From: Candidatus Omnitrophota bacterium
Lineage (GTDB): Bacteria > Omnitrophota > Gorgyraeia > Tantalellales > Tantalellaceae
Length of the DNA: 64,000 nucleotides
Assembly: GCA_049642015.1 (NCBI GenBank)
Contig: JBAROI010000054.1
Location: 553-64,552, forward strand
Direction of reading: 5' to 3'
Shown one piece after another: positions 2,228 through 60,619 of the stretch; position 1 is the first letter of the stretch, and the number at the start of each line of letters is the position of its first letter. A program made the translations under genes and the position numbers. The notes below the pieces were generated by a model. It searched no databases and was not told the origin of the DNA. It saw only the letters and a program-made list of their open reading frames with translations.

Positions 2228-3014
2228 TATCATGGCGTTTTTTCTTCGTTTATACCGGATCACGGCGCTTGCCGTATGGCTTCTGTTCATCATCCTTTTA
2301 ACCATACCGTACCAATTCAGAGGCTGGAACGGGGTTAAAAAGATAAACCGCCTCGTCCATTTACTGATGACGGGCGCCGCAAAGATCATTAATCTGCGTG
2401 TTAAATTGTCAGGCGAAGTTCCCGATGCGTCCGCGGGTTTGGTTGTTTCAAACCATCTTAGTTATCTGGATATAATCGCCCACGGCTCGGTTTTTCCCAT
2501 TCGTTATTCCCCAAAATCAGAGATCGCAAAATGGCCGATCCTTGGATGGGTTACCGCTTTAAGTCATCCGATATGGATCAAAAGAAAAATGAAACAAGCG
2601 TCCAAAGAGACCTTGAAAGATTTCGCGGAAACCGCCAAACATGGAATAAACCTTTTAGTTTACCCGGAGGGAACAAGTTCTGACGGAAAGAGCGGTGTTC
2701 TTCCGTTCAAGTCCACTCTTTTTGAAGCCGCCGTTGCGGAAGACCTGCCGGTCATTCCCGTACTGACGCGCTATCGTGAGGCTCCCGGAAGAACTACCGT
2801 ATGCTGGTACGGCGACATGACCCTGCTTCCTCATCTCTGGCAGGTGCTGGGCTTTCCTTCCATAGAATCGGAACTTCATCTTCTTCCACCTGTTTTTCCG
2901 GAAGGAAGGTCAAGAAAGGAAATGGCTTCCCACGTGCATGAACTTCTCAGCCGTGAATATAATAAGATTATCGGTGTGGACGCAAAATGGCAAACATCAG
3001 AAAGCATGTTTTGA
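2220..3014 (+). CDS. olsA: lysophospholipid acyltransferase (PlsC family), OlsA-like
   Basis: N-terminal TM, VVSNHLSYLDII (HX4D-type motif) and YPEGTSS motif; operonic with OlsB-like gene. Confidence 0.65.
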   Translation: MVDIMAFFLRLYRITALAVWLLFIILLTIPYQFRGWNGVKKINRLVHLLMTGAAKIINLRVKLSGEVPDASAGLVVSNHLSYLDIIAHGSVFPIRYSPKSEIAKWPILGWVTALSHPIWIKRKMKQASKETLKDFAETAKHGINLLVYPEGTSSDGKSGVLPFKSTLFEAAVAEDLPVIPVLTRYREAPGRTTVCWYGDMTLLPHLWQVLGFPSIESELHLLPPVFPEGRSRKEMASHVHELLSREYNKIIGVDAKWQTSESMF

Positions 3015-3265
3015 TAAGCGGGATGGTCCAGGGAGTGTTTTTTCGCTCCGACACGAGGGAGATGGCGCGCAGCCTCGGGATGACGGGTTGGGTCAGGAAC
3101 TGCTGGGACGGAAGAGTGGAAGCCGTCTTTGAAGGAGAGGAATCCATGGTTGACCACGCGGTCGAATGGTGCCGTAAGGGACCTCCTTCAGCTCATGTAA
3201 ATAAAATTGATGTTACTACCGAAAAATATACCGGTCAATTCGATACTTTTGATATAACGTACTAA
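2987..3265 (+). CDS. acyP: acylphosphatase
   Basis: GMVQGVFFRSDTR...GWVRNCWDGRVEAVFEGE signature of acylphosphatase fold. Confidence 0.8.
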   Translation: MANIRKHVLISGMVQGVFFRSDTREMARSLGMTGWVRNCWDGRVEAVFEGEESMVDHAVEWCRKGPPSAHVNKIDVTTEKYTGQFDTFDITY

Positions 3266-6535: not shown

Positions 6536-7012
6536 ATGAAAATAATAATAATCTCGACAGCTTTAATGTTATTTTACGTATTCATCGCGTTCATCGGCCT
6601 TTTCTTGTATACTAAGCCTTCCAGGGCGATCGAACTGCAGAAAAAGTTTTACGAAAAGATAAACTGGAGGATAGAGCCGGTATCGATGGAAAAGGAGATC
6701 CGCAATACCAGGATCATGGGGCTGATCTTGCTCATTGCGACCTTTGTGTCGATAATATTATCAGTCTTGAGTTGCGGGGCCTTTGCGGACGAGGACAGGA
6801 AGCTGCCAGAGAAGGGCGTGACGCAGATGGAGGACTTCGGAGGCGGGCAGTACATGACGGGCGGCGGCGAAATAGTGCAGATGGACGACCTGGGCGACGA
6901 CGATTACCTGACGACAGACGGAGAATTGATACAGACGGAAGACATGGGCGGCGGGGACTACCTGACAAGCGAGGGAAAGATACTGCAAATAGAAGGCGAA
7001 GGAAAGGATTAG
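6536..7012 (+). CDS. membrane protein with C-terminal acidic Gly-rich tandem repeats
   Basis: Two TM helices then 3.4 copies of a 19-aa unit (xEDhGGGxYhTxxGEIhQ) encoded by 57-nt DNA repeats. Confidence 0.4.
   Translation: MKIIIISTALMLFYVFIAFIGLFLYTKPSRAIELQKKFYEKINWRIEPVSMEKEIRNTRIMGLILLIATFVSIILSVLSCGAFADEDRKLPEKGVTQMEDFGGGQYMTGGGEIVQMDDLGDDDYLTTDGELIQTEDMGGGDYLTSEGKILQIEGEGKD
6827..7009 (+). repeat. 57-nt coding tandem repeat (3.2 copies)
   Basis: Encodes the 19-aa acidic Gly-rich repeat of ORF 6536..7012. Confidence 0.6.
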
Positions 7013-7016
7013 CGGC

Positions 7017-7286
7017 ATGCCTGACGAAGAAAATATAATTTCGGATGAGCTGAAATTAAAATTACAGGAAGACGAGATCATAAAGTCGGTCAAGTCGTCC
7101 GGGGAATATCTTTATTACTGGAACATGCAAAAGATGACCCTGGCCCTTTTTTTACTTCTTCTCACAGCGAGTATTATCTGGAGCTGGTGGATCCTGCTCA
7201 TCTCGTTCACCTTTCTCGGTGTTAATCTGTACGCGAACTTCAAAAGGATGAGGTTGCTGCTGGAGCATAGAACCGCAAGTCATTGA
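7017..7286 (+). CDS. hypothetical small membrane protein
   Basis: ORF with two TM helices; abuts neighbours. Confidence 0.3.
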   Translation: MPDEENIISDELKLKLQEDEIIKSVKSSGEYLYYWNMQKMTLALFLLLLTASIIWSWWILLISFTFLGVNLYANFKRMRLLLEHRTASH

Positions 7287-8050
7287 TGCTAAAAAAATTC
7301 TCAATCCTAATTTTGATCTGCTCGATATCCTATCAATTTGCCTGGGCCGGCGAGGCGCAGGGCCCCGATGTTGTCACCATTCAGCTTAAAAATAAGGGAA
7401 AGGTCGAAGGTGTTATCGTCAAAGAGACGGAAGAAGGGATATTTGTGGATGTCGGTTTCGGGACCGTCGGCGTTTCAAAGAGCGAGATCGAAGAAATAGA
7501 GTATCCCGCGGGCGGCGAAAAAGGCGATATGGTGAGGACCTGGAGAATGCACCGGACCGAAACCATAAGAAATATAAAGAGAAGAAGAAGTGACGAAGAA
7601 GCGGTGGAGAGAAGAATAGAAGAAAGCATGAGGGCCAAGGAAAAGATCGCCGAAAAAGCAAGAAGGGAAGAAGGATACAGGGTAAAATTCGCGGACAGGT
7701 CCAGGATCCAGGTGGAAGCCGTTCTTAACGAAGAAGCCACGGCGACGCTCCTTGTTGATACCGGGGCTACCCTCGTGGTCATACCCCTTGAAGTTGCGGA
7801 ACGCTTGACCGGCGTGGACCTGGATTCCGCGAGAAAAATAGAAACGAAACTTGCGGACGGGACGGTGAGGGAAAGCGTTCCCATAATGTTAAGATCTGTC
7901 GAAGTCGGTGATATGAAAGCCAGGAACGTAGAAGCTGCCGCAATGGATCTGCAGGGGAAAAGTGGCCTTCTGGGGATGTCTTTTTTGAGCCGGTTCCACA
8001 TACACATGGATGCTGAAAATAAAGAGCTGGTGTTCAGGGAGAAGAAATAG
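7283..8050 (+). CDS. retropepsin-like (clan AA) aspartic protease with signal peptide
   Basis: LLVDTGATLVVIP active-site motif (D-T-G-A) in C-terminal domain; N-terminal signal sequence. Confidence 0.65.
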   Translation: MMLKKFSILILICSISYQFAWAGEAQGPDVVTIQLKNKGKVEGVIVKETEEGIFVDVGFGTVGVSKSEIEEIEYPAGGEKGDMVRTWRMHRTETIRNIKRRRSDEEAVERRIEESMRAKEKIAEKARREEGYRVKFADRSRIQVEAVLNEEATATLLVDTGATLVVIPLEVAERLTGVDLDSARKIETKLADGTVRESVPIMLRSVEVGDMKARNVEAAAMDLQGKSGLLGMSFLSRFHIHMDAENKELVFREKK

Positions 8051-8054
8051 AGCC

Positions 8055-9287
8055 ATGGATAACGAACGGCGGAAAAAGCCCGAACTGGTAGCACCCGCAG
8101 GAGACTGGAGCTCGCTTTACAGCGCTTCCGAGGCCGGCGCTGATGCCGTGTATTTCGGCGTCAAGGGCCTTAACATGCGCGCGAGCGCGAGAAATTTTGA
8201 TATTCTTGAAATAAGAAAAGTAATGGATTTTCTTCGCGGGGAAGGCAGGAAGGGATACCTGGCTTTGAACGTCCTTGTCTATGACCGCGAGATGGACCTG
8301 GCAAGAAAGATCCTGGACGCGGCCCGGGAGGCGGGAGTTGACGCCGTCATCGTCTGGGACATGGCGGCGCTTTCGATCGCGAAGGAACTCGGACTTTGCG
8401 CGCACCTTTCGACCCAGGCGAGTGTCGCCAACCTGCCGGCGCTGAAGGCGTATTCCTCCCTGGGTGTTGACCGGGTCGTATTGGCAAGAGAGTGCGCCTT
8501 AAAAGACATAGAAAATATGATACAGGGCCTCTCCCGGGAAAAAATAAAATGCAGGATCGAGACGTTCATCCACGGGGCGATGTGCGTAAGCGTTTCCGGC
8601 AGATGCTTTCTTTCCCATCATTCTTTTTTCAGGTCGGCGAACAGGGGCGATTGTATCCAGCCATGCAGGAGGGAATTCACCATTATTGATAAGGACAAGG
8701 AGTGCGGTTACGTGCTGGGGGAGGATTACGTATTAAGCGCGAAAGACCTGTGCACCGTAGGATTCATAGACAAACTGATAGAGGCCGGCATTCACGCCTT
8801 CAAGATCGAAGGAAGAATGCGTCCGCCGGAATACGTAAGTGTCGTTACTTCTGTCTACAGGGACGCTATAGATTCGTTTTTTGAAGGCGGTTTTGATGAT
8901 GATAAGAAAGAGGAGCTTTTAAAAAGGCTCGGCCGGTCCTTTAACAGGGGCTTTACGAGCGGGTTCTATTTCGGCAGGCCCGATGATACCGGAGGAAGAG
9001 TAAGCAGGGAGTACGAAAAAGTCTACCTGGGAGAGGTCGTTAAGTTCTATAAAAAAGTAGGCGTTGCCGAGATAATGGTAAGGGGCGAGGCTTTGAACAC
9101 GGGCCAGGAGATATTAGTTACAGGTAAAAAAACGCCTGCCAGCTTTGCCAGGGTGACGGAAATGCAGATAGAACACGAGGCGGTTGAATCGGCCGAAAAG
9201 GGACAGGCTGTAGGGGTTAAACTTCCGTTTGCGGTCCGTCGGGACGATAAAGTTTTTCTCTGGAAGTCAAGTGAGGCCCAAACTTAG
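8055..9287 (+). CDS. peptidase U32 family protein (collagenase-like; RlhA/UbiU-type)
   Basis: ELVAPAGDW...AGADAVYFG N-terminal U32 signature, Cys-rich core, C-terminal beta-barrel domain; start moved from 8010 to in-frame ATG 8055 to avoid overlap with upstream gene. Confidence 0.8.
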   Translation: MDNERRKKPELVAPAGDWSSLYSASEAGADAVYFGVKGLNMRASARNFDILEIRKVMDFLRGEGRKGYLALNVLVYDREMDLARKILDAAREAGVDAVIVWDMAALSIAKELGLCAHLSTQASVANLPALKAYSSLGVDRVVLARECALKDIENMIQGLSREKIKCRIETFIHGAMCVSVSGRCFLSHHSFFRSANRGDCIQPCRREFTIIDKDKECGYVLGEDYVLSAKDLCTVGFIDKLIEAGIHAFKIEGRMRPPEYVSVVTSVYRDAIDSFFEGGFDDDKKEELLKRLGRSFNRGFTSGFYFGRPDDTGGRVSREYEKVYLGEVVKFYKKVGVAEIMVRGEALNTGQEILVTGKKTPASFARVTEMQIEHEAVESAEKGQAVGVKLPFAVRRDDKVFLWKSSEAQT

Positions 9288-9500
9288 CAAAGCTAAGTTT
9301 GGTGGCCGAACTTGACCCAGCCTTCTAAGCTGTTAATGGGCAGTAGTGATTTAAGAGAAAAGTTAACTGAAATACAAAAGGATTTTTGAAACTTACCAGC
9401 ATAGAAGGCTGGGTTTAATTCGCAGACGGCCTAAAAGGCCTACAATTTATGTCGTCCATAGAGGACTCCATAAATTGTCTGCTCATTAAAAAAGGAGGTA
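9268..9500 (+). repeat. family-1 structured intergenic leader element, copy A
   Basis: caagtgaggccc + ccaaacttagc/gctaagtttgg hairpin + gccgaacttgacc + cccag...ctggg stem (75-nt insertion in loop) + tttaattcgcagacggcctaaaaggcc + acaatttatg/cataaattgt hairpin + ctcattaaaaaaggagg SD. Confidence 0.7.
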
Positions 9501-9760: not shown

Positions 9761-10144
9761 ATGAATAAAACTATCATATTGTTAGTTATGCTCGCGCTTT
9801 TCACGGTTTCCGGATGCGCGCCCGCAGGCGTCATTGTAGTTCATCTCAAGGGCGATGCGGAGATAGAGATCGCCAGAAACCAGGAACTTGAGGTCGAGCT
9901 GGAGGCGAATCCGACTACCGGGTACAGCTGGAGAGTGTCCGGCCTCGCGGATAGCAGCATTCTCCGGCAAAAGGGTGGATCACATTACGAAAGAAAATCA
10001 GATCTTATAGGCGGAGGCGGCATAGAGAAGTATCGTTTCGAGGCGTTAAGAGGAGGACGCGCGGATCTTGTTTTCGAGTATCAAAGGCCGTGGGAAGATA
10101 AAGAACCGGTAAAAAAATATACTCTGGGCGTGGTTGTCCGCTAG
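9761..10144 (+). CDS. chagasin-family peptidase inhibitor I42 (lipoprotein)
   Basis: Lipobox (FTVSGCAP); NPTTGYSW, GGGG and RPWE motifs characteristic of chagasin/I42 inhibitors. Confidence 0.75.
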   Translation: MNKTIILLVMLALFTVSGCAPAGVIVVHLKGDAEIEIARNQELEVELEANPTTGYSWRVSGLADSSILRQKGGSHYERKSDLIGGGGIEKYRFEALRGGRADLVFEYQRPWEDKEPVKKYTLGVVVR

Positions 10145-12925: not shown

Positions 12926-13936
12926 GTGAAATTTTCAAAAAACTTTATTATAACAATTTCTATTATTATCTTCGTAGCGCTGGCGCTGGCGGGTTTTATG
13001 ATATGGAAGGCGAAAAGGCCGCCGCTGAAAGTCGGGCGCGAAGTAATCCGAGATTTCTCGTTTCCCGATGCTAAAAGCTTGAATGAATGGGAAGATAAGC
13101 TTTTGGCCCGCAGCCGCACTGATTACAGCGTGGCCGAAGAGGCGGGCAAGAGCTGCGTCAAGGCCCAAAGCGAAGATTCGGCATCAGCCCTTTTTTACCA
13201 GCGCAACCTTTTTTTCTTAAAGAGGCCCTTTGTAAGCTGGGACTGGAAGGTGGCGAAATTCCCGGAACGGCAGCAGCAAGAGAACCTTGATAAGAAAGAA
13301 GAGTTTGATTTCGGCGCTCAATTTTACGTTATATTCGCATCCAGGTTCTTTCTTAATACAAAGGCCATCCAGTATGTCTGGACCGAAAAGATGCCGGCGG
13401 GGACGGTCAGTAATAGCCCGTATACAAAAAATGTTAAGATCATGGTCCTTGAATCCGGGCCTTCTGAAGAGTGGAAACACGAAGAGCGGAACATAGAAGA
13501 GGATTTTAGAAATCTTTTTGGCAAGGAACTCAATAAGAACGTGGCCGCGGTAGCGCTTATGTCGGATTCTGACAGCACCGGGACCAGCGCTTTAGCTTAT
13601 TTCAGCAATATTGTACTCGGCTATCTTGGAGTGGATTTGAGCAGGCGAAAGCGCTATGTAAAGAAAAAGCTTGTGCGGTCAAAGCGCTTCCCGTTTAGAA
13701 AGATAGAAGTTGAAGTAGCAGAAGAAGTGGAACCGGCAAAGAAAGTAGAGCCGGTAAAAGAAGTGGTGCCGGCAGAGGAAGTAGAGCCGGTAAAGGAAGT
13801 GGAGCCGGTAGAAGAAATAGCACCCGCAGAAGAAGCAGAACCGATAAAGGAAGAAAAGCCAATAGAAGAAGCAGAACCAGCAAAGGAATTGGAGCCAACA
13901 AAGGAATTGGAGCCAACAAAGGAGGAAAGCCATTAA
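12926..13936 (+). CDS. DUF3047-like protein (paralog 2) with C-terminal E/P/K-rich tandem repeat tail
   Basis: N-terminal TM; core similar to ORF 674..1408; C-terminal (EPxKEx) repeats. Confidence 0.45.
   Translation: MKFSKNFIITISIIIFVALALAGFMIWKAKRPPLKVGREVIRDFSFPDAKSLNEWEDKLLARSRTDYSVAEEAGKSCVKAQSEDSASALFYQRNLFFLKRPFVSWDWKVAKFPERQQQENLDKKEEFDFGAQFYVIFASRFFLNTKAIQYVWTEKMPAGTVSNSPYTKNVKIMVLESGPSEEWKHEERNIEEDFRNLFGKELNKNVAAVALMSDSDSTGTSALAYFSNIVLGYLGVDLSRRKRYVKKKLVRSKRFPFRKIEVEVAEEVEPAKKVEPVKEVVPAEEVEPVKEVEPVEEIAPAEEAEPIKEEKPIEEAEPAKELEPTKELEPTKEESH
13705..13930 (+). repeat. tandem coding repeats (~24-30 nt units, gaagtRgagccggtaaaggaa-like)
   Basis: Direct repeats visible in DNA; encode VEPVKEVEPVEE... 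tail. Confidence 0.6.
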
Positions 13937-15141: not shown

Positions 15142-15143
15142 AT

Positions 15144-15306
15144 CAAGTGAGGGCCAAACTTAGCTTCGCTAAGTTTGGTGGCCGAACTTGACCCCACACC
15201 CAGAATTACCTGGGTGTGGGGTTTAATTCGCAGACGGCCTAACGGCCTACAATTTATGTCGTCCATAATGGACTCCATAAATTGTCTACTCATTAAAAAA
15301 AGGAGG
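15144..15306 (+). repeat. family-1 structured intergenic leader element, copy B
   Basis: Same modules as copy A; begins 3 nt after lpxA stop. Confidence 0.7.
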
Positions 15307-15312
15307 AGAGGA

Positions 15313-15666
15313 ATGGAAAAAAATGATTTAAACAAGCTGATTAAAAAATACGAGCCTGTCATGAAGAAGACCGGCGAGCAGCTCACGAAGGCAATGAAAA
15401 GCGCCGAGAAAGATGTTTCCAAAATGTATAAAATAGCCCAGACCCACGTAGAGATACAGATGAAGAATCTGCAGAAGGAAAAACTCTACTATGAATTGGG
15501 CAAATACGTTGCGGGAAAACTCAAAAAAGGGGAGATCGAGATCGCCGGCCTTGAAAAGTACAAAAAATCCCTAAGCAAGATCGAGTCCGAAGGGAAAATG
15601 ATGAAAAGCAAATTATCCCGGATCGGAACAGGCAAGGGTAAGGAAAAATCTTCTAAGAAAAAATAA
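15313..15666 (+). CDS. hypothetical Lys-rich coiled-coil protein
   Basis: ORF with strong AGGAGG SD, preceded by family-1 leader element; start at MEKNDL within longer track ORF. Confidence 0.4.
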   Translation: MEKNDLNKLIKKYEPVMKKTGEQLTKAMKSAEKDVSKMYKIAQTHVEIQMKNLQKEKLYYELGKYVAGKLKKGEIEIAGLEKYKKSLSKIESEGKMMKSKLSRIGTGKGKEKSSKKK

Positions 15667-29203: not shown

Positions 29204-29242
29204 CCAGGTTTAAGGGTTTCGAATTAAAGTGGCGGTAGATGG

Positions 29243-29272
29243 AGCCAGGGCTAATAGCCCTGGCTTTTTTAT
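29243..29272 (+). terminator. rho-independent terminator
   Basis: gccagggc-taata-gccctggc hairpin + T6. Confidence 0.75.
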
Positions 29273-29282
29273 TAAAAAAGTA

Positions 29283-29310
29283 TTGACAGAGCGCTAAAAC
29301 CTGATATAAT
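29283..29310 (+). promoter_or_regulatory. sigma70 promoter TTGACA-16-TATAAT
   Basis: ttgaca 29283-29288, tataat 29305-29310; drives Rrf2-metY-cysK-metX-metW. Confidence 0.65.
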
Positions 29311-29788: not shown

Positions 29789-31084
<1,296 letters not shown>

Positions 31085-31236
31085 GTCAGGTGAGGCTATT
31101 ACTTATGGTGCAGAGCGCCATAAGTAATAAAGCCGAACTTGACCCCACACCCAGAATTACCTGGGTGCGGGGTTTAATTCGACCGAATAGTTTACGTGCA
31201 CGTTGTGCACGTAAACTATGGTCTCATTAAAGGAGG
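31085..31236 (+). repeat. family-1 structured intergenic leader element, copy C (module-1 hairpin replaced; module 3 of ttacgtgcac/gtgcacgtaa type)
   Basis: gtgaggc + attacttatggtg/cgccataagtaat hairpin (one G·U) + gccgaacttgacc + cccacacccag/ctgggtgcggg + tttaattcgaccgaata + hairpin + ctcattaaaggagg SD. Confidence 0.65.
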
Positions 31237-31242
31237 GGAGTC

Positions 31243-32175
31243 ATGAAAATATACGATGATATCACAAAAACTATCGGGAATACGCCTCTTGTTAGGATCA
31301 AAAGGGTAAGCGAAGGTCTTCCGGGCAACATCATAGCCAAGCTGGAGTTTTTCAACCCCCTTTCCAGCGTGAAGGACCGTATCGCTATATCCATGATCGA
31401 AGCGGCGGAGAAGGCGGGAAAACTAAAGAAGGACTCGATCGTTATCGAGCCCACAAGCGGCAATACCGGCATAGGTCTTGCTTTTGTCTGTGCCGCGAAA
31501 GGATACAAGCTGATCCTGACCATGCCTGACACAATGAGCGTAGAGAGAAGGGTCCTTTTGAAGATAATGGGCGCGGATCTTGTTCTTACGCCCGGTGAAA
31601 AAGGCATGAAAGGGGCAGTTGAGAAAGCCGAGGAGCTGGTCAAGTCCACGCCGAATGCGGTCATGCCGCAGCAGTTCGAGAACGAAGCCAACCCGGAAAT
31701 TCACCGGAAGACCACAGCGCAGGAAATATGGGACGATACCGACGGAAATATCGATATATTCATTTCCGGGATAGGAACAGGCGGGACCATTACGGGTGTT
31801 GGTGACGTGCTGAAGAAGAAAAAACCCGACGTTAAGATCGTGGGCGTGGAGCCCGAATCTTCAGCCGTGCTCTCGGGAGGAGAACCCGGCCCCCACAAGA
31901 TACAGGGTATCGGAGCAGGTTTCATCCCAAAGGTCTTGAAAAAAGAGTTGATAGATGAGATAATAACGGTTTCTGACGACGAATCCGGAGAGTATGCCCG
32001 CAGGATCGCCAGGGAAGAGGGCATGCTTGTAGGGATATCGTCGGGTGCCGCCATGGCCGCGGCTGTCAAGGTCGCCTCAAGGGAGGAGAACAAAGGAAAA
32101 AACATCGTTGTAGTTTTTCCTGACACCGGCGAAAGATACCTGAGCACGTGGCTTTTTAAAGATTTTATGGATTAA
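31243..32175 (+). CDS. cysK: cysteine synthase A
   Basis: [19 protein letters not shown]-lysine motif; SGNTGIGLA; GIGAGFIP. Confidence 0.85.
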
Positions 32176-40782: not shown

Positions 40783-40863
40783 GGAAAGAGGTAGGCATGT
40801 CACAACCTGTAATCTATGATAAAAATAAACAGGACATAGTTGTTCGCTATAACCGGTAGTGGT

Positions 40864-41283
40864 ATGCAAAAATTCAACGTAAGCCCAGCAAAAGAAAAAA
40901 ATCTTAAAGACAAAATGTGCCGCTTCGGCATAAAAGAGCGCGACCTGACGGAGAAGTTCATCAGGTCAAGCGGCAAAGGCGGACAGCACGTCAATAAAAC
41001 GTCTACCTGCGTATACCTGAAGCATAATCCGACGGGTATAGAGGTCAAATGCGGCAAAGAGCGCTCTCAGGTCCTGAACCGGTTTCTGGCCCGCAGGATG
41101 CTGGCGGGGAAGATCGAGACGATGGTGCTGGGAAAAGAAGCGGAAGAAAAAAAGCGCATTGCGAAAATACGCAGACAAAAGCGCAAAAGGTCCAAAAGGG
41201 CAAAAGAAAAAATGCTCGCTACCAAGAAAAGACGAGCTGAGAAGAAGACCCTGCGCAAGAAAGTAGGACTTGAGAACGATTAG
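40864..41283 (+). CDS. arfB: alternative ribosome-rescue factor ArfB (peptidyl-tRNA hydrolase, GGQ)
   Basis: SGKGGQHVNKT motif, short size, Lys/Arg-rich C-terminal tail; start uncertain (40840 TTG, 40864 ATG or 40915 ATG). Confidence 0.7.
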   Translation: MQKFNVSPAKEKNLKDKMCRFGIKERDLTEKFIRSSGKGGQHVNKTSTCVYLKHNPTGIEVKCGKERSQVLNRFLARRMLAGKIETMVLGKEAEEKKRIAKIRRQKRKRSKRAKEKMLATKKRRAEKKTLRKKVGLEND

Positions 41284-41293
41284 TAGCGCTCTG

Positions 41294-41393
41294 ATAACCG
41301 GTGAAGGGTACTCCGCGCGCAGTTTCCGAAAAATAGTAATCTTAGGTCATTGTTTTCGGACTGTTTGAGCACGGAGTACCCTTCACCGGTTAT
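41294..41393 (+). repeat. family-2 long hairpin element (copy 1)
   Basis: 22-bp perfect outer stem ataaccggtgaagggtactccg/cggagtacccttcaccggttat around conserved core cgcgcagtttccgaaaaat...ttttcggaNtgtttgagcacgg; begins 11 nt after arfB stop. Confidence 0.6.
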
Positions 41394-41430
41394 TAAGGCG
41401 CCGCTAGTACGGGAACGACAAGGGTAGCAG

Positions 41431-42993
41431 ATGGGCAAGAAGATCAGGGAGACTTGGGGCACGCGCCTGGGCGTTATAATGGCTGTTGCCGGATCGGCGG
41501 TAGGCCTGGGCAATTTCCTGCGTTTTCCGGTGCAGGCGGCAAAGAACGGAGGGGGCGCGTTCATGATCCCCTACTTTGTTGCGCTCCTCCTGGTAGGGAT
41601 ACCGCTGATGTGGATAGAGTGGTCCATAGGGCGCTACGGCGGCGGATTTGAGCATTCCTCGGCTCCCGGCGTGTTCCACAGCCTGTGGGAAAAGAACCGC
41701 TTTATCAAGTATTTCGGGGTCATAGGGATATTCGGTCCGCTTGTGATCATGATCTACTACACCTATATCGAATCGTGGACCCTTGCCTACAGCTTTTTCT
41801 CGGTCACGGGAAGATATTCCGGCCTGACGGATCGCTCCTCCATGGAGGCATTTCTATCCGCCTTTCAGGGGTTGACAAAGAATCAGTATTTTTCCAGCAT
41901 AGCCCCGGCGTACATATTTTTTCTGATAACGTTCGCGATCAACATGGCGGTCCTGTCTTACGGTATCCGCGGGGGGATAGAACGGTTCTGCAAGTTCGCG
42001 ATGCCGACCCTGCTTATCTTCGGCATCATACTGGCCGTCCGGGTCCTCAGTCTCGGAGTCCCTGATCCCGCGAAACCCGCATGGAACGTGGCAAACGGAC
42101 TGGGATATCTGTGGAACCCGGATTTTTCCCGTCTTAAAGAAGCGAGGGTATGGCTTGCGGCAACCGGGCAGATATTCTTTACGCTGAGCGTAGGCATCGG
42201 CGTTATACTGACGTACGCCAGTTACCTTAGAAGGGGTGACGACGTGACGCTGTCGGGACTTACCGCGGTAAGCATGAACGAAACGGCTGAAGTCGTCCTT
42301 GGCGGCAGCATCGTGATCCCCGCGGCTTTTATATTTTTTGGTCCGATGGCGATAGGAGCAATAGCCAACTCCGGCGCTTTCAATCTTGGATTTGTAACAA
42401 TGCCTCTGATCTTTTTACACATGCCTTTTTCGGAACTTTTAGGATTTTTGTGGTTCGCCCTTCTTTTTCTTGCCGGCGTCACTTCGTCCGTTTCCCTCGC
42501 GCAGCCGGCCATCGCTTTCCTCGAAGATGAATTCGACATATCGCGGAAAAAGGCCGTGCTGCTTTTCGGTATAGTGACTTTTACCCTGTGTAACGGCGCG
42601 ATATTTTTCCTCGGAAGGGGAGTAGTGGACGAGCTGGATTTTTGGGGCGGCACATTTTGCCTGGTGCTTTTTGCCGCGATCGAAGTGATCTTGTTCGGAT
42701 GGATATTCGGGATAGAGAAGGCGTGGGAGGAAGCTCATCACGGGGCCGACATGAGAATTCCGGGAATCTATAAATACATAATCAAGTACGTAACGCCGGT
42801 ATTTCTTCTGGCGGTTCTTGCAGCGTGGTTCTTCCAGGATTGGCTGCCCATCATGCGTATGGATAACATTTCACCGGAGAACGCTCCTTATATCATGGCA
42901 ACGCGAGTAGGCCTCTTGCTGCTTTTTCTCGCGCTTGCGATAATGGTCAAGGTCGCGTGGAAAAAACGGAGAATAAAGGGGAATCCTGTATGA
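41431..42993 (+). CDS. sodium-dependent transporter, NSS (SNF) family
   Basis: 12-TM; N-terminal GTRLGVIMAVAGSAVGLGNFLRFP signature. Confidence 0.85.
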   Translation: MGKKIRETWGTRLGVIMAVAGSAVGLGNFLRFPVQAAKNGGGAFMIPYFVALLLVGIPLMWIEWSIGRYGGGFEHSSAPGVFHSLWEKNRFIKYFGVIGIFGPLVIMIYYTYIESWTLAYSFFSVTGRYSGLTDRSSMEAFLSAFQGLTKNQYFSSIAPAYIFFLITFAINMAVLSYGIRGGIERFCKFAMPTLLIFGIILAVRVLSLGVPDPAKPAWNVANGLGYLWNPDFSRLKEARVWLAATGQIFFTLSVGIGVILTYASYLRRGDDVTLSGLTAVSMNETAEVVLGGSIVIPAAFIFFGPMAIGAIANSGAFNLGFVTMPLIFLHMPFSELLGFLWFALLFLAGVTSSVSLAQPAIAFLEDEFDISRKKAVLLFGIVTFTLCNGAIFFLGRGVVDELDFWGGTFCLVLFAAIEVILFGWIFGIEKAWEEAHHGADMRIPGIYKYIIKYVTPVFLLAVLAAWFFQDWLPIMRMDNISPENAPYIMATRVGLLLLFLALAIMVKVAWKKRRIKGNPV

Positions 42994-56463: not shown

Positions 56464-57373
56464 AAAAGTACGAAATAAATTAGTCGAAATATGCGATGCA
56501 ACCGGAAGCCGTGTCGCTTTTGACGAGGATCTTTCCACGCACAGCACGATTTCCGTCGGCGGAAAAGCAAAAGCCTGGTTTGTGCCTTCTTCTCTTGAAG
56601 CCTTGCGCGAAGCGGTCCTTTTTCTGTGCGATTCGGGAACATCTTCAATTGTCGTGGGCAACGGCAGCAACGTCCTGATGCCGGATAACGGGCTGGAAGT
56701 CGCGATCAACCTGGACAACGGTTTTTTCGTTAAGAAAGAGTTCGAAGACAGAAAAGTCCTTGCCGGCGCGGGTGTGGACCTGGGGGGTCTCATTTCCGAT
56801 TGCTGCCTGAGGGGACTCTCGGGGATTGAAGGGCTTGTGGGGATACCGGCTACGGTCGGCGGAGCCCTGGCCACGAACGCTTCATACAAAACGGCGATAA
56901 GCGATTGTCTCGAAAGCGTCCGTGTCATGAATAAAGAAGGTAACGCGAGATGGGTGAAAAAAGGTGACATCAGGTTCGGTTATCGCTCATCTTCTTTTAA
57001 GAACGGTGAAGTGATCGTCGAGGCGGTTTTCAACCTGGCTGAAATGTCGCCGGACCAGCTGAAGCAAGCGCTGAAGGCGAATTTTTGCGACAAAAAACAT
57101 AAACAGCCTCTCGGCGTAAAGACCCTGGGCTGCATATTCAAGAACCCGGAAGGCAGCGAAAGAAAAGCCGGAGAGCTGATCGAGCTAGCAGGCATGAAAG
57201 GCGCGAGCGTTGGCGACGCCCAGGTATCGCAGATGCACGCCAACTTCATCGTCAACAGCGGAAACGCGACCGCACGCGACGTTATTGTGCTCATTGAGGA
57301 AGTGCGCCAGCAAGTCTTCGAGAAGTTTTCGATCGCCCTGGAGCTCGAAATTGAAATATTAGATACCCGGTAG
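56456..57373 (+). CDS. murB: UDP-N-acetylenolpyruvoylglucosamine reductase
   Basis: FAD-binding VVGNGSNVL motif; C-terminal MurB domain. Confidence 0.85.
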   Translation: MTEKVRNKLVEICDATGSRVAFDEDLSTHSTISVGGKAKAWFVPSSLEALREAVLFLCDSGTSSIVVGNGSNVLMPDNGLEVAINLDNGFFVKKEFEDRKVLAGAGVDLGGLISDCCLRGLSGIEGLVGIPATVGGALATNASYKTAISDCLESVRVMNKEGNARWVKKGDIRFGYRSSSFKNGEVIVEAVFNLAEMSPDQLKQALKANFCDKKHKQPLGVKTLGCIFKNPEGSERKAGELIELAGMKGASVGDAQVSQMHANFIVNSGNATARDVIVLIEEVRQQVFEKFSIALELEIEILDTR

Positions 57374-57374
57374 A

Positions 57375-57463
57375 TTGTGTGCGGTATTCCGCGCGCAGTT
57401 TCCGAAAAATCGTATTCTAGTTTAGCGTTTTTCGGATGTTTGAGCACGGAATACCGCACACAA
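57375..57463 (+). repeat. family-2 long hairpin element (copy 2)
   Basis: Outer stem ttgtgtgcggtattccg/cggaataccgcacacaa (different sequence, same pairing) around the same conserved core as 41294..41393; begins 2 nt after murB stop. Confidence 0.6.
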
Positions 57464-57486
57464 GCTGCCGGGGTGCTAAGATTACT

Positions 57487-58416
57487 ATGAAAGAGTTAGA
57501 TGCGCTTAGAAAATACGAGATAGGAGTTTTGGCTGGCGGAAGTTCGAGCGAGCGGGAAATAAGCCTGAAGAGCGGAAGAGCCGTTTTCGATGCTTTGCGC
57601 GAGGCAGGCCTTGACGCGGCGCTCATCGACGTCAAAGAGGACGACTTTGCTTTACTGGTGAACGAGGCCGGCATAGACCTGGCCTTTATCGCCCTGCATG
57701 GCAGGTTCGGCGAGGACGGGACGGTCCAGAAGATGCTGTTCGAAAGAGGCGTTCTTTACACTGGCTCAGGGCCGGAAGCCTCCCGTATGGCGCTCGACAA
57801 GATCGCGTCAAAAGAGCGGTTAAGCGGGAAAGACCTGAAGACTCCCGAGTACATGGTTACGGAGCTCGGAGAAAGCATACCGTACGAAAGCGTCTGGTTC
57901 CCCTGTGTCGTCAAGCCCCAGCATGAAGGGTCGAGCATAGGCCTTACGGTCGTTTCCTCGAAGGAGCACCTGGCAGAGGCGGTGGACAGGGCTTCTAATT
58001 ACAGCAGGCGCATCATCATCGAAAAATTTATTGAGGGCAGAGAGATAACAGTCGGCATACTGGAGAACAGGGCGCTGCCCGTGGTAGAGATCGTCCCCGA
58101 AGGAGGGTGCTACGATTTTAACGCCAAGTATCAATCGGCAAATACCAGGTACATCGTTCCGGCTGATATCGACGAAGACGTTTTTAAACGCGCCCAGGAA
58201 ACGGCGGTAAACGCCCACAACGCCCTTGGCTGCGAGGAATTCTCCAGGGTGGATATGCGGCTTTCGTCCGAGGGAGAATTATTTATTCTGGAGGTCAACA
58301 CCATCCCGGGACTCACCGAGAGGAGTTTGCTTCCGATGGCAGCAAAGGCGGTGGGCTTGAGTTTTACCGAGCTATGCGTTAAGATACTTGTGGGAGCGAT
58401 CAGGAAAGTCAAGTGA
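57487..58416 (+). CDS. ddl: D-alanine--D-alanine ligase
   Basis: ATP-grasp; GVLAGGSSSEREISL N-terminus; start at MKELDAL (57487) within track ORF 57436. Confidence 0.85.
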   Translation: MKELDALRKYEIGVLAGGSSSEREISLKSGRAVFDALREAGLDAALIDVKEDDFALLVNEAGIDLAFIALHGRFGEDGTVQKMLFERGVLYTGSGPEASRMALDKIASKERLSGKDLKTPEYMVTELGESIPYESVWFPCVVKPQHEGSSIGLTVVSSKEHLAEAVDRASNYSRRIIIEKFIEGREITVGILENRALPVVEIVPEGGCYDFNAKYQSANTRYIVPADIDEDVFKRAQETAVNAHNALGCEEFSRVDMRLSSEGELFILEVNTIPGLTERSLLPMAAKAVGLSFTELCVKILVGAIRKVK

Positions 58417-58565
58417 GGGCCAAACTTAGCGAAGCTAAGTTTGCTGGCCGAACTTGACCCCACACCCAGCATATTATGAACATAGCATGCTGGGTGTGGG
58501 GTTTAATTCGACCGAATACCTTACGTGCACAGTGTGCACGTAAGGTATGGTCTCATTAAAGGAGG
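58410..58565 (+). repeat. family-1 structured intergenic leader element, copy D
   Basis: caagtgagggcc + module-1 hairpin + gccgaacttgacc + cccacacccag...ctgggtgtggg + ttacgtgcac/gtgcacgtaa hairpin with outer stem acct/aggt (agtt/aact in copy C) + ctcattaaaggagg SD; ddl stop TGA lies inside the element. Confidence 0.7.
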
Positions 58566-58573
58566 ATAAATAA

Positions 58574-59350
58574 GTGGCGAGAAGAAAAAAAGGACAGGAT
58601 TTTGGAAATCTTTTCAAGAATCTCTTTAGCAGCAAACTTGTTTTGATAGGTCTTTTGTGCATTGTTGTAACAGGAGGTTTTTTTTACGGCATCTGGTATT
58701 TTCTGCATAATGACCCGTTTTTCACTATAAACAGCGTATCGGTGAACGAGGAAGGGGATTATTCCCTGTGGAAAGGGAAGGATAGGCTCGGCAGGCTTTA
58801 TGCGGGAAGGAACATATTTAGCGTAAATCCCGCGGAGATAGAGATAATGATAAGAGATGAAGCCCCGCAGCTGGATACTGTAACCGTGCGGCGGATCATG
58901 CCGGACAGGCTTGAAATAGACGTTGTTCCCCGCAGACCCGTGGCATTTATAGACGCGGGGGAACCTGTTATTATCGACGCTGAGGCGATCGTCTTGAGCC
59001 GGGAAGGCAGCACAGGGGATCTGGTCCAGATAAAAGGGATCAGGTTCTTTTTTTCAAGCCCTTCGGTGGGCGAGCGTATCGACAACGCGATGCTGTCCAA
59101 AGCCCTGGCGCTTCTGGATGCCTTGCGCGAGAAAGGCATCTCCGGAAAAATCCCCGTTAAATTTATTGATATCTCCGACCGGAACGATATCCAGTTCAGC
59201 ATTCTTGACGTCAGGATAAAGATGGGAAACAGCGGTTTTCCCGGAAAAATAATCAAACTCAAAGAGATACTGGATGACCCCGATGTTGACATCAAAGACA
59301 TAAAATACATCGATCTGAGGTTCGAGAAGGCGGTCATATCTCCGAAGTGA
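58574..59350 (+). CDS. ftsQ: cell-division protein FtsQ (POTRA)
   Basis: GTG start 8 nt after GGAGG; single TM then POTRA-like domain; dcw position. Confidence 0.7.
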   Translation: MARRKKGQDFGNLFKNLFSSKLVLIGLLCIVVTGGFFYGIWYFLHNDPFFTINSVSVNEEGDYSLWKGKDRLGRLYAGRNIFSVNPAEIEIMIRDEAPQLDTVTVRRIMPDRLEIDVVPRRPVAFIDAGEPVIIDAEAIVLSREGSTGDLVQIKGIRFFFSSPSVGERIDNAMLSKALALLDALREKGISGKIPVKFIDISDRNDIQFSILDVRIKMGNSGFPGKIIKLKEILDDPDVDIKDIKYIDLRFEKAVISPK

Positions 59351-59489
59351 AGTAAGGACACAACTTACGGAGTGAAACGACGTAAGTTGTAAGTCCGAAC
59401 TTCATCCTGAGCGAACGAACAAAGTGAGTGAGTCGAAGGATCTCAAGAAAGATTCCTCGACTCCCCTGGGTCTTCGCCCGGGGTCGCTC

Positions 59490-59520
59490 GCCCCGTTAGA
59501 AACGGAATTTCTAACGGGGC
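59490..59520 (+). repeat. family-3 hairpin (gccccgttagaaa / tttctaacggggc), copy 2
   Basis: 13-bp stem, 5-nt loop, in ftsQ-ftsA spacer; shares ccgttagaaa arm with copy 1. Confidence 0.6.
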
Positions 59521-59566
59521 TCGGAATGACATCAGGAAGACTAATGAAGTCGAAGGATCTAAAAAG

Positions 59567-60619
59567 ATGAACAGGTATTTTGCGATCTTAAATACGGGAT
59601 CTGACGAGATCACGGCAGTTGCAGCCCGCTGGACGGGGAGCGGCGACTATTTACTGGAAGGTTTCTGCAGGGGCGCCTCGAGGGGCCTTCGGAAGGGAGT
59701 CGTCGACGATATTACCGCCGCGGCAAGCGCTGTGCACGGCGTATTGAACGACCTGAAGGAGAGATCGGGCAAAAAATTTTCAGATGTGTACGCAAGTATA
59801 AGCTCTTCCTCCGTCAGGATCGCTTCGTCCCGGGGGATGGTGGTGCTTTCGAAATACGGACGCGAGATCAACGAGAACGACATAAAGAAATGCGTCCAGG
59901 CCGGGTCCACGGTAAAGATGCCGCTCGATAAAGAGGCCCTGCATTACATAGTTAGCGGGTTTTCCGTTGACGGAGAAAAATCCGTAAAAAATCCTTTGAA
60001 TCTGGAAGGCGTCAAACTTAACGCCAACATGAACATTATCACGATAAACTCTTCGGCGTTAAACAATCTTGCTAAATGTATTACCATGGCCGGCTTTTCT
60101 CCCGCGGGGTTTGTTTTTTCCGGACTTGCCACGTCTTACAGGGTCCTGGACGAAGAGGAAAAAGAAGAAGGGACCGTTTTGCTGGACATAGGAGACGATA
60201 CCGTTGAAGCCCTGGCCTTTTACAGGGGCATATTAAGAGGGTGCAGGGTTTTTCCCATAGGATTGAACGAGATCCTCCTGAAAGGCGAGAATGTCGATAA
60301 AAGCAGCATAGATGATCTTGTTTCACAGATCGTTTCCCTGCCCGGCTGGGATACGACCCGCAAGGTAGTGGTGACAGGCAATGGGGCAATGGTCGACAGG
60401 CTGGTCGAGGTTCTGGAAAAGTCCTTCAAGCGCCCTACCGAGATCGGGACTTTTCTTGTAAAGCCGTTCGAGGAACTCCCTCCCGAAAGAATGAGGTATC
60501 TCGGGAACATCGGCATACTGGATTACCTCCGGGAAAAGAAACTGGCAGAACGTCACTCCGGAAATCCGACAAAAAGGGTTTTCAACAAGATCCTCGCTTT
60601 CATCGACCGCTATTTCTAG
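59567..60619 (+). CDS. ftsA: cell-division protein FtsA (actin-like ATPase), short form
   Basis: Alignable to E. coli FtsA blocks (LDIGDDTVEALAFYRG..., VVVTGNGAM...). Confidence 0.7.
   Translation: MNRYFAILNTGSDEITAVAARWTGSGDYLLEGFCRGASRGLRKGVVDDITAAASAVHGVLNDLKERSGKKFSDVYASISSSSVRIASSRGMVVLSKYGREINENDIKKCVQAGSTVKMPLDKEALHYIVSGFSVDGEKSVKNPLNLEGVKLNANMNIITINSSALNNLAKCITMAGFSPAGFVFSGLATSYRVLDEEEKEEGTVLLDIGDDTVEALAFYRGILRGCRVFPIGLNEILLKGENVDKSSIDDLVSQIVSLPGWDTTRKVVVTGNGAMVDRLVEVLEKSFKRPTEIGTFLVKPFEELPPERMRYLGNIGILDYLREKKLAERHSGNPTKRVFNKILAFIDRYF

Follow-up and report, generated by a model that had tools for sequence, protein, structure and literature searches.

The 64-kb window of Candidatus Omnitrophota DNA analyzed here (by "window" we mean the whole stretch) contains an Rrf2-metY-cysK-metX-metW operon, whose genes encode the Pfam domains Rrf2, Cys_Met_Meta_PP (metY), PALP (cysK), Abhydrolase_1 (metX), and MetW. 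An initial annotation had placed a repeat-family element inside this operon, in what it described as the only intergenic gap of more than 15 nt, and had credited the element with the ribosome-binding site of cysK. These descriptions held up. The gaps between consecutive genes are 15, 158, 2, and 3 nt, and the 158-nt spacer (positions 31085 to 31242) separates metY (29792 to 31084, with a TAA stop codon at 31082 to 31084) from the cysK ATG at 31243. It is occupied by one of five copies of a repeat family in the window, here called copy C, and the cysK ribosome-binding site falls within the 3′ end that is conserved across the family, CTCATTAAAGGAGG. The full-length form of this family encloses a gene for a GIY-YIG nuclease.

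The spacer consists of three directly abutting modules, M1, M2, and M3, after which come GGAGG and the start codon of cysK (Table 1). Its predicted RNA fold has a free energy of −84.2 kcal/mol, compared to −41.0 ± 4.2 kcal/mol for shuffled sequences (z = −10.3); the fold comprises three domains and leaves GGAGGGGAGUC unpaired. M1 of copy C has all the parts that define the family: a 7-bp outer stem, a GA/GA internal loop, the 4-bp stem P1a, and a hairpin of ~10 bp. R1, our covariance model of M1 (62 positions, 23 pairs), matched it with 70.1 bits (positions 31085 to 31145; E = 5e-18). The t-g pair that the initial annotation had reported in the first hairpin is present: positions 31098 to 31110 pair with 31116 to 31128, giving 13 pairs that include t31109·g31117. 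In the M2 hairpin there is one A·C mismatch; read from the opposite strand, this position would be G·U. No promoter-like or terminator-like site was called inside the copy C spacer, and the terminator scan did not call M2 of copies B, C, or D; upstream of the operon promoter there is a terminator-like hairpin (29241 to 29267). A small open reading frame (ORF) in the element was considered and rejected: in copy C it is open from a GTG at 31090 to a TAA, and the frame is broken in copies A, B, and D and in others.

An element family of Omnitrophota

An exact-pattern scan (GAACTTGACC-N14-44-GGTTTAATTCG) of 185,579 species genomes, one genome per species, gave 11 matches. Seven of these were in Candidatus Omnitrophota metagenome-assembled genomes (MAGs) and had the full architecture; the other four did not have it. 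A metagenome scan yielded 12 further bona fide copies, all with the full architecture. Genomes other than that of the window were represented by contig fragments, and no gene was common to the window and the element loci of the pattern scan (L001 to L025). We conclude that the family is confined, as far as sampled, to Candidatus Omnitrophota.

In consensus, M1 reads NUCAAGU-GA-(4-bp stem)-(hairpin)-(4-bp stem)-GA-ACUUGAC and forms a unit of ~60 nt (51 to 63 nt), M2 is a central CCC...GGG hairpin, and M3 reads UUUAAU-UC-(stem)-(hairpin)-(stem)-UC-AUUAAA. As in the rest of the family, M3 of copy C ends in CTCATTRAAGGAGG, 5 to 9 nt before a start codon on the same strand. R1 detected 29 M1 modules in diverse Omnitrophota contigs, together with 19 M3 modules that resemble inverted M1. 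Its matches to M3 are on the opposite strand, with scores of 33 to 52 bits across the family (45.4 bits for copy C, positions 31170 to 31232, minus strand). These matches identify M3 as a diverged M1 in inverted orientation, so that the element as a whole forms a quasi-palindrome centered on M2.

Pairing within the module is supported by very strong covariation. In a curated M1 alignment, 92.7% of cells were paired and 15 of 23 pairs had changed on both sides, a result equaled by none of 500 shuffles. In an alignment of all 48 modules, which is fitted to the R1 model itself, the corresponding values were 93.6% and 21 of 23, with a covariation score of 0.582 compared to 0.183 after shuffling.

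Searches of known collections did not account for the element. Rfam 15 gave no match in the window at gathering score, and at E values up to 10 it gave only far-sub-threshold matches, mostly to models of microRNA-precursor hairpins. Our literature searches found no description of an M1-M2-M3 element. No element was found in IMG/VR contigs, and we rejected a phage origin on that basis. CsrA-type GGA loops, a K-turn, a SECIS-like UGA plus hairpin, and a tRNA-like cloverleaf closed by the Shine-Dalgarno (SD) sequence were also considered and dropped, since their defining features vary among copies. In five loci (L006, L010, L014, L016, and L018), TTTAAT follows a short-loop M2 of the CCCTTGACAT type, and together they form a sigma-70-like TTGACA-16-TTTAAT arrangement. 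We rejected M2 as an internal promoter, because this spacing is lost when the loop length changes, in long-loop copies.

The position of the element relative to genes is highly regular. For 27 M1-type copies, wherever the flank could be read, an ORF starts on the same strand 145 to 240 nt downstream, and each complete copy ends in an SD sequence. The genes that follow are unrelated (cysK, ftsQ, ftsA, recA, rpmF, parA, thioredoxin, the PFOR gamma subunit, hom, and others). Fifteen copies have an upstream ORF on the same strand that terminates no more than ~20 nt from where the element starts, and in at least 9 of those the upstream stop codon is the element's own conserved TGA. The TGA belongs to an RTGA (ATGA or GTGA) in the first 9 nt of the element that serves as the upstream stop in many copies, including the ddl stop in copy D (58414 to 58416) and the ftsQ stop in copy E (59348 to 59350); its A variant places an A·C mismatch in the outer stem of about one-quarter of copies. 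Contig L010 has three elements within 2 kb, on both strands, each aligned with the direction of its gene. Hence, orientation follows transcription, not replication. Two of the three start ~7 nt after the −10 box of a promoter of the TTGACA-17-TATACT type, a distance that makes the element the 5′ end of the transcript there.

A nuclease-bearing form of the element

Some copies are much longer. In one locus (L007), a complete element lies between lipA and a trxB-like gene and has a 15-bp M2 stem, CCCTTGACATTTTTC/GAAAAATGTCAAGGG, whose loop of ~275 nt encodes a GIY-YIG protein (PF01541; E = 2.7e-14). A second (L036), between nadE and an asnC-type gene, has the order M1, M2 5′ arm, GIY-YIG ORF, M2 3′ arm, M3, SD, and a third (L037), between serS and a gene of unassigned function, has the same architecture. 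R1 scored 75 and 65 bits on M1 of L036 and L037, respectively, and 45 and 34 bits on their inverted M3. The M2 arms are ~270 nt apart in full-length copies. The ORF is ~95 codons long, with PF01541 as its sole Pfam domain. It has no SD sequence of its own, and its ATG lies 2 to 3 nt inside the M2 stem; formation of that stem would be expected to repress translation of the nuclease. Eukaryotic Slx1 is a structure-specific nuclease. The closest solved structures to the element-encoded protein are those of the UPF0213 proteins 1ywl and 1zg2, which are minimal bacterial Slx1-family GIY-YIG nucleases (PMC1564403).

Homologues of the nuclease formed 40 clusters of 70 to 134 amino acids (aa), assigned, where named, to Omnitrophota or Omnitrophica. 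The peptide CQGFNS, which is the translation of TGTCAAGGGTTTAATTCG (the M2 3′ arm and the beginning of M3), was present in 37 of the 40 clusters, and one-residue variants were present in two more. Thus, the translated M2/M3 junction ends 39 of the 40 clusters. Translation of the 3′ end of M3 gives HKSRAH, with which several C-terminal tails finish, and translation of the end of M1 together with the M2 5′ arm gives the ...LTLDIL... at the start of gene calls with long N termini. Gene callers had run the GIY-YIG ORF through M2/M3 (KCQGFNS...HKSRAH) and back into M1, as in protein clusters P0146 to P0178. Upstream host ORFs are likewise called into M1 (lipA in L007 and the U32 peptidase gene at 8010 to 9287 of the window); these are annotation artifacts.

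In addition to its ORF-bearing element, L037 has a second, ORF-less copy 6 kb away with a near-identical M3, and its M2 (CATTTTG-CGAAA-GCAAAATG) corresponds to what remains after deletion of the ORF. The extended M2 stem is retained in several ORF-less loops (L017, L022, and L023). In copy A of the window, the 97-nt M2 translates to MGSSDLREKLTEIQKDF; we considered this as a GIY-YIG remnant and rejected it, as the family hidden Markov model (HMM) did not support it.

Window copies, orthologous junctions, and base-pair statistics

The window contains five copies of the family, one of them partial (Table 1). All four full copies are on the plus strand, and each terminates in CTCATTAAA(A)GGAGG followed by a start codon. 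Copy A is flanked by the U32 peptidase gene and, from 9504 on, by an 82-aa membrane ORF, and its 97-nt M2 hairpin has a long insert; copy B follows an lpxA-like gene and precedes a 117-aa ORF (start at 15313); and copy D lies between ddl and ftsQ (GTG at 58574). Copy E had not been listed in the initial annotation and was found by R1. Its outer stem is compensated, with UGAAGU/ACUUCA replacing UCAAGU/ACUUGA. The copies are mosaics: M2 is common to B and C (98% identity over 50 nt spanning M2), M3 is common to C and D (91% identity) and, separately, to A and B (93%), and M1 is common to A, B, and D.

Table 1. Copies of the element in the window, modules of copy C, and associated signals
Feature	Position	Strand	Description
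Copy A	9266-9498	+	M1, 9266-9316; M2, 9317-9413; M3, 9414-9490; SD, 9494-9498; R1, 64.3 bits
Copy B	15142-15306	+	M1, 15142-15192; M2, 15193-15221; M3, 15222-15297; SD, 15302-15306; R1, 56.9 bits
Operon promoter, sigma-70 type	29283-29310	+	TTGACA-16-TATAAT, perfect
Copy C	31085-31236	+	Between metY and cysK; element proper, 31085-31231
Copy C, M1	31085-31143	+	Outer stem GUCAGGU/ACUUGAC, GA/GA internal loop, stem P1a, hairpin 1
Copy C, M2	31144-31172	+	GC-rich hairpin CCCCACACCCAG/CUGGGUGCGGGG; 6-nt loop; abuts M1 and M3 without linker
Copy C, M3	31173-31231	+	UUUAAU/AUUAAA stem, UC/UC internal loop, GACC/GGUC stem, hairpin 3
Copy C, SD and start codon	31232-31245	+	GGAGG, 31232-31236; 6-nt spacer; ATG, 31243-31245; unpaired in predicted fold
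Copy D	58408-58565	+	M1, 58408-58458; M2, 58459-58501; M3, 58502-58560; SD, 58561-58565; R1, 61.4 bits (plus strand) and 46.2 bits (minus strand, over M3)
Copy E, partial	59347-59566	+	M1, 59347-59407; R1, 68.9 bits; noncanonical hairpins up to the ftsA ATG at 59567

Other repeats were observed in or near these sites. A CCTGAGCGAA..GTCGAAGG motif recurs in or beside elements (copy E, 59408 to 59566; L006, 234 to 347; and L010, ~2970 to 3160), and a CCCGTTAGAAA..TTTCTAACGGG hairpin recurs in copy E and in the metY-cysK copy of a relative (L045, 455 to 500). A second, unrelated family of in-operon inverted repeats occurs at 41281 to 41406 (between ORFs 40840 to 41283 and 41431 to 42993) and at 57350 to 57488 (between murB and ddl); GGTAYTCCGCGCGCAGTTTCCGAAAAAT is common to its two members, whose folds have energies of about −80 kcal/mol. 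Within a DUF3047 ORF (12926 to 13936), ~12 units of an 18-bp tandem repeat (13687 to 13914) encode a Pro/Glu/Lys-rich repeat. In a public copy of the window's own scaffold (L027, ~9888 to 9983), the copy C stretch is masked with N.

A comparison of orthologous operons, proposed in the initial annotation as a check on the insert, showed that the element is also present in one relative and is absent from four of the five junctions that could be read. Relative L034 (89% CysK identity) has a metY-cysK gap of 9 nt (GCATGAGAGGTTCTTGTG) and no element, and its SD sequence, GAGAGG, overlaps the metY stop codon and differs from that of the element. Gaps in the other element-free junctions are 66 nt, with one unrelated hairpin (L029; 82%), 62 nt (L030; 80%), and 25 nt (L031; 78%). 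A further relative (L035; 83%) has no metY upstream of cysK. The exception is L045 (87%), which has a 134-nt element at this junction. Its M1 is 91% identical to that of copy C, including the unusual hairpin 1. A 5-nt deletion disrupts the outer stem of this M1; M2 of L045 belongs to the CCCTTGACAT type, and its M3 core is the CCCGTTAGAAA... hairpin that is present also in copy E. Given a shared M1, a different M2 and M3, and empty sites in the other relatives, insertion predates the split between the window and L045, and modules have since been exchanged.

Copies D and E were absent from the relatives compared. Across ddl-ftsQ-ftsA, the two gaps are 54 and 13 nt in a relative with 85% FtsQ identity (from gene coordinates), 6 and 7 nt in L032 (56% FtsQ identity), and 43 and 219 nt in L033. 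Over 104 kb from five relatives, R1 found no copy, compared to five in the 64-kb window. Such patchiness fits a mobile or fast-turnover repeat, not a conserved regulator. L032 has two copies of a structured repeat of its own of ~300 nt, at 7504 to 7811 (murC-murB) and 8727 to 9052 (murB-ddl), so different Omnitrophota lineages bear different in-operon repeats.

From the t-g pair in hairpin 1, which pairs only as G·U in RNA, the initial annotation had argued that the conserved feature is an RNA structure and not a DNA cruciform. This argument fails at the level of the family. Predicted folds of 20 elements contained 46 G·U pairs when the sense strand was folded and 39 when the antisense strand was, with equal fold energies (mean difference, +0.5 ± 0.7 kcal/mol), and G·U accounted for ~1.3% of the 1,080 pair cells of the 48 modules. 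The curated M1 alignment had 6 G·U and 8 to 13 A·C cells; of the 13, five are in a doubtful terminal pair and five are at pair 6-69 (AAAUGA variants). With no sense/antisense asymmetry in either data set, we rejected G·U as a strand marker. The same fold is obtained for the copy C spacer when DNA parameters are used (z = −9.8) and when the antisense RNA is folded (−79.6 kcal/mol; z = −12.0). Alignment A2 places the T·G of hairpin 1 in copy C at a conserved non-Watson-Crick GA/GAA internal loop of the family, which in copy C is zipped into a near-perfect stem. In favor of the earlier argument, the orthologous copy in L045 retains the T·G and gains an adjacent G·T (G·U on the sense strand). We conclude that the hairpins are real and under selection and that the pair statistics are compatible with selection on RNA, DNA, or both.

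Proposed origin and role of copy C

The architecture of the element, its covariation, its co-orientation with genes and donation of the SD sequence, its presence/absence pattern, the exchange of modules, and the nuclease-bearing form are established. From these we consider it probable that copy C belongs to the ORF-less derivatives of an intergenic mobile element that carries a nuclease and that it is tolerated for supplying the downstream ribosome-binding site. Copy C looks like a relic of a mobile element rather than a dedicated regulator of cysK, and short-loop members such as copy C appear to be deletion or miniature derivatives of the full-length form. Since the downstream genes are unrelated, four of five relatives are empty, and full-length relatives carry a nuclease, an effect of copy C on RNA is more likely a by-product of the mobile element than the reason for the existence of the sequence.

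Such an element would spread as DNA, aided by the nuclease, through homing into the palindrome of an ORF-less M2 or through transposition or cutting directed by the structure of its hairpins. The elements fill the space from the upstream stop codon (often their own TGA) to the downstream SD sequence or serve as 5′ leaders; copies are gained and lost between related genomes, and modules are swapped between copies. The element may persist in operons because its transcribed 3′ end offers an unpaired, strong SD sequence right after the clamping P3 helix. At the empty site of L034, overlap of the SD sequence with the metY stop codon implies tight coupling of metY and cysK. With copy C in place, cysK would initiate afresh, 150 nt from the metY stop and independently of metY translation. 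As a side effect, the stable hairpins may also stop exonucleases or attract RNase III. A further proposal, that the minimal Slx1-like (UPF0213) GIY-YIG nuclease is the mobilizing enzyme of an undescribed class of bacterial mobile elements and recognizes the element's own DNA hairpins or cruciforms (M1, M2, and M3), is tentative, and we think it possible rather than probable.

Several observations weigh against a mobile origin of copy C. Copy C is tied to the nuclease by family membership only: the family HMM detected no GIY-YIG gene or remnant over the 64-kb window, copy C being the ORF-less form, and the M2 type of the window (CCCCACACCCAG) was never seen with an ORF. At the one filled/empty pair (the window and L034), there was no clear target-site duplication or defined insertion chemistry. 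Slx1-like GIY-YIG proteins are not known to act as transposases. The nuclease could also be a passenger or parasite of a preexisting host RNA element, and the conserved 10-nt blocks and loop motifs (GA/GA, UC/UC, and GA/GAA) would also fit an RNA useful to the host.

The last points lead to the principal alternative, that M1-M2-M3 functions throughout the phylum as a leader or intercistronic RNA, for example as a translation insulator or enhancer or as a binding platform for a conserved factor, and that the GIY-YIG gene is a homing-type parasite of the M2 loop, much as genes invade intron loops. The blocks GAACUUGAC, UUUAAUUCG, and CUCAUUAAAGGAGG are conserved across marine, groundwater, and deep-subsurface genomes, as are the loop motifs GA/GA, UC/UC, and GA-GCGAAGC-GAA, and this deep conservation gives the alternative real weight. 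The fusion of the element to the SD sequence is precise. In addition, the ORF sits exactly in a terminal loop, and homing would find a natural target in the palindrome of the ORF-less M2 (CCCTTGACAT..ATGTCAAGGG), which the ORF splits. Against this, the family is patchy, as the five relatives and the window show; no copy was found to be conserved at an orthologous site beyond L045; the window copies have lost the conserved GA/GAA loop; and G·U is nearly absent, which is unusual in RNA helices under long selection. We regard this alternative as unlikely, though not by far.

The initial annotation had suggested a determinant of RNA processing or stability. In this model, the determinant is selected by the host, and its hairpins would be cleaved (e.g., by RNase III) or would block exonucleases, giving the metY and cysK segments of the mRNA unequal lifetimes so that cysK is expressed independently. 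Co-transcribed palindromic repeats, such as the REP elements in malE-malF and Correia elements, can act in this way. Copy C lies downstream of the operon promoter, which would drive its transcription, and neither a promoter nor a terminator was called within it. Its predicted helices are very stable (20 to 25 bp) and leave the SD sequence free. M1 begins at a stop codon (or, in L010, at the 5′ end of the transcript), and the L045 copy has kept the T·G and added a G·T. However, the element-free relatives manage with 9 to 66 nt at this junction, and the element also precedes genes as unrelated as ftsQ, recA, rpmF, parA, and trx. There is no excess of G·U on the sense strand, M2 and M3 were swapped between lineages at metY-cysK itself, and the L045 element persists even though the 5-nt deletion destroys the outer stem of M1. 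Such a determinant is, in our judgment, decidedly unlikely.

If a Y1 (HUH) transposase or RAYT moved the hairpins in the form of single-stranded DNA, as in REP/BIME or IS200/IS605 systems, the replication strand would set their orientation. Hairpin modules, inverted pairs, and mosaics are found in BIMEs and REPINs also, the mismatch statistics are strand symmetric, and the element-bearing contig L036 encodes a Y1_Tnp protein. That IS200-like gene (6771 to 7247, minus strand) lies between inverted repeats of its own, GGGACGGTTCTCAA/TTGAGAACCGTCCC, which are unrelated to the element, and no M module flanks it. The window has no Y1 homologue, the units are ~60 nt rather than 20 to 40 nt, the L010 elements switch strand with their genes within 1.5 kb, and the gene embedded in the element encodes a GIY-YIG protein, not an HUH protein. 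We consider this mode of movement very improbable. Finally, M2 (a GC-rich stem of 11 to 12 bp) followed by UUUAAUU has the look of an intrinsic terminator or attenuator that would reduce transcription of cysK-metX-metW relative to metY, but none of copies B, C, and D was called in the scan, the U-tract is interrupted, the arms are ~270 nt apart in full-length copies, and the same layout occurs in the 5′ leaders of recA, thioredoxin, and parA, where constitutive termination would be costly; we give this explanation almost no credence.

Known repeat families share some features with the element and lack others. REP/BIME/REPIN sequences of gammaproteobacteria, which occur with RAYT, are likewise multicopy extragenic hairpins in inverted pairs and mosaics, are co-transcribed in operons, and form lineage-specific sets; they can affect mRNA stability and, when near a stop codon, upstream translation. 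In contrast to REP units of 20 to 40 nt, the Omnitrophota units are ~60 nt with conserved internal loops; the element is always 5′ of a gene and ends in its SD sequence, and its GIY-YIG gene is nested in the central hairpin, whereas REPs flank a Y1 transposase gene. Correia/NEMIS repeats of Neisseria, ERIC, BOX, and RUP resemble the element in being intergenic, 100 to 160 nt long, co-transcribed, and able to form long hairpins with inverted ends; BOX is similarly modular, and Correia/NEMIS-like repeats also differ between close relatives. Unlike Correia/NEMIS, the Omnitrophota element has no TA duplication or 26-bp terminal repeat, is strictly co-oriented with the downstream gene, and has an autonomous-looking partner with a nuclease gene. 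As regards miniature inverted-repeat transposable elements, M1 and M3 are inverted homologues and ORF-bearing partners were found; the partner enzyme is not a known transposase. MIRUs, in operons of Mycobacterium, are also intergenic and oriented with translation, with ends that overlap the flanking stop and start signals; however, they are direct tandem units of 40 to 100 bp with small ORFs and have neither hairpin modules nor a nuclease.

Free-standing GIY-YIG homing genes (the seg genes of phage T4) and intron-encoded I-TevI offer another parallel: a promoterless gene between conserved co-directional genes, presence/absence polymorphism, decay of the ORF to remnants, and an ORF in the loop of a structured element. 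They differ in that the Omnitrophota protein is a minimal Slx1-like/UPF0213 protein with no DNA-binding domain (PMC1564403). The Omnitrophota element, moreover, occupies many unrelated sites within one genome, has inverted 60-nt hairpin ends, donates the downstream SD sequence, and resides in a bacterial chromosome, not in viral contigs.

If copy C is a mobile-element derivative, the metY-cysK spacer is to be reread as one copy of a family that colonizes the intergenic spaces of a poorly known, uncultured phylum and not as a regulator made for cysK. It would represent a selfish insertion that lives in essential operons, including the dcw cluster and genes of methionine/cysteine synthesis, and limits its harm in two ways: in many copies its own TGA terminates the upstream gene, and its 3′ end provides a ribosome-binding site, a strategy with parallels in introns and inteins. 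A covariance model of the element would improve the annotation of Omnitrophota MAGs, where the ...KCQGFNS tails and LTLDIL heads are artifacts. We know of no role for bacterial stand-alone Slx1-like/UPF0213 GIY-YIG proteins. Here, one UPF0213 subfamily is always nested in a defined DNA/RNA structure, which provides predicted substrates: the M2 palindrome and the M1 and M3 hairpins. Should the nuclease prove to mobilize the element, recognition by the enzyme would involve no sequence-specific site, and the element would enter between a stop codon and the next start codon, paid for by a ready-made SD sequence. ORF-less copies, such as the one in the metY-cysK spacer, would then amount to portable expression cassettes between cistrons, through which translational coupling in the operons of Omnitrophota is rewired.

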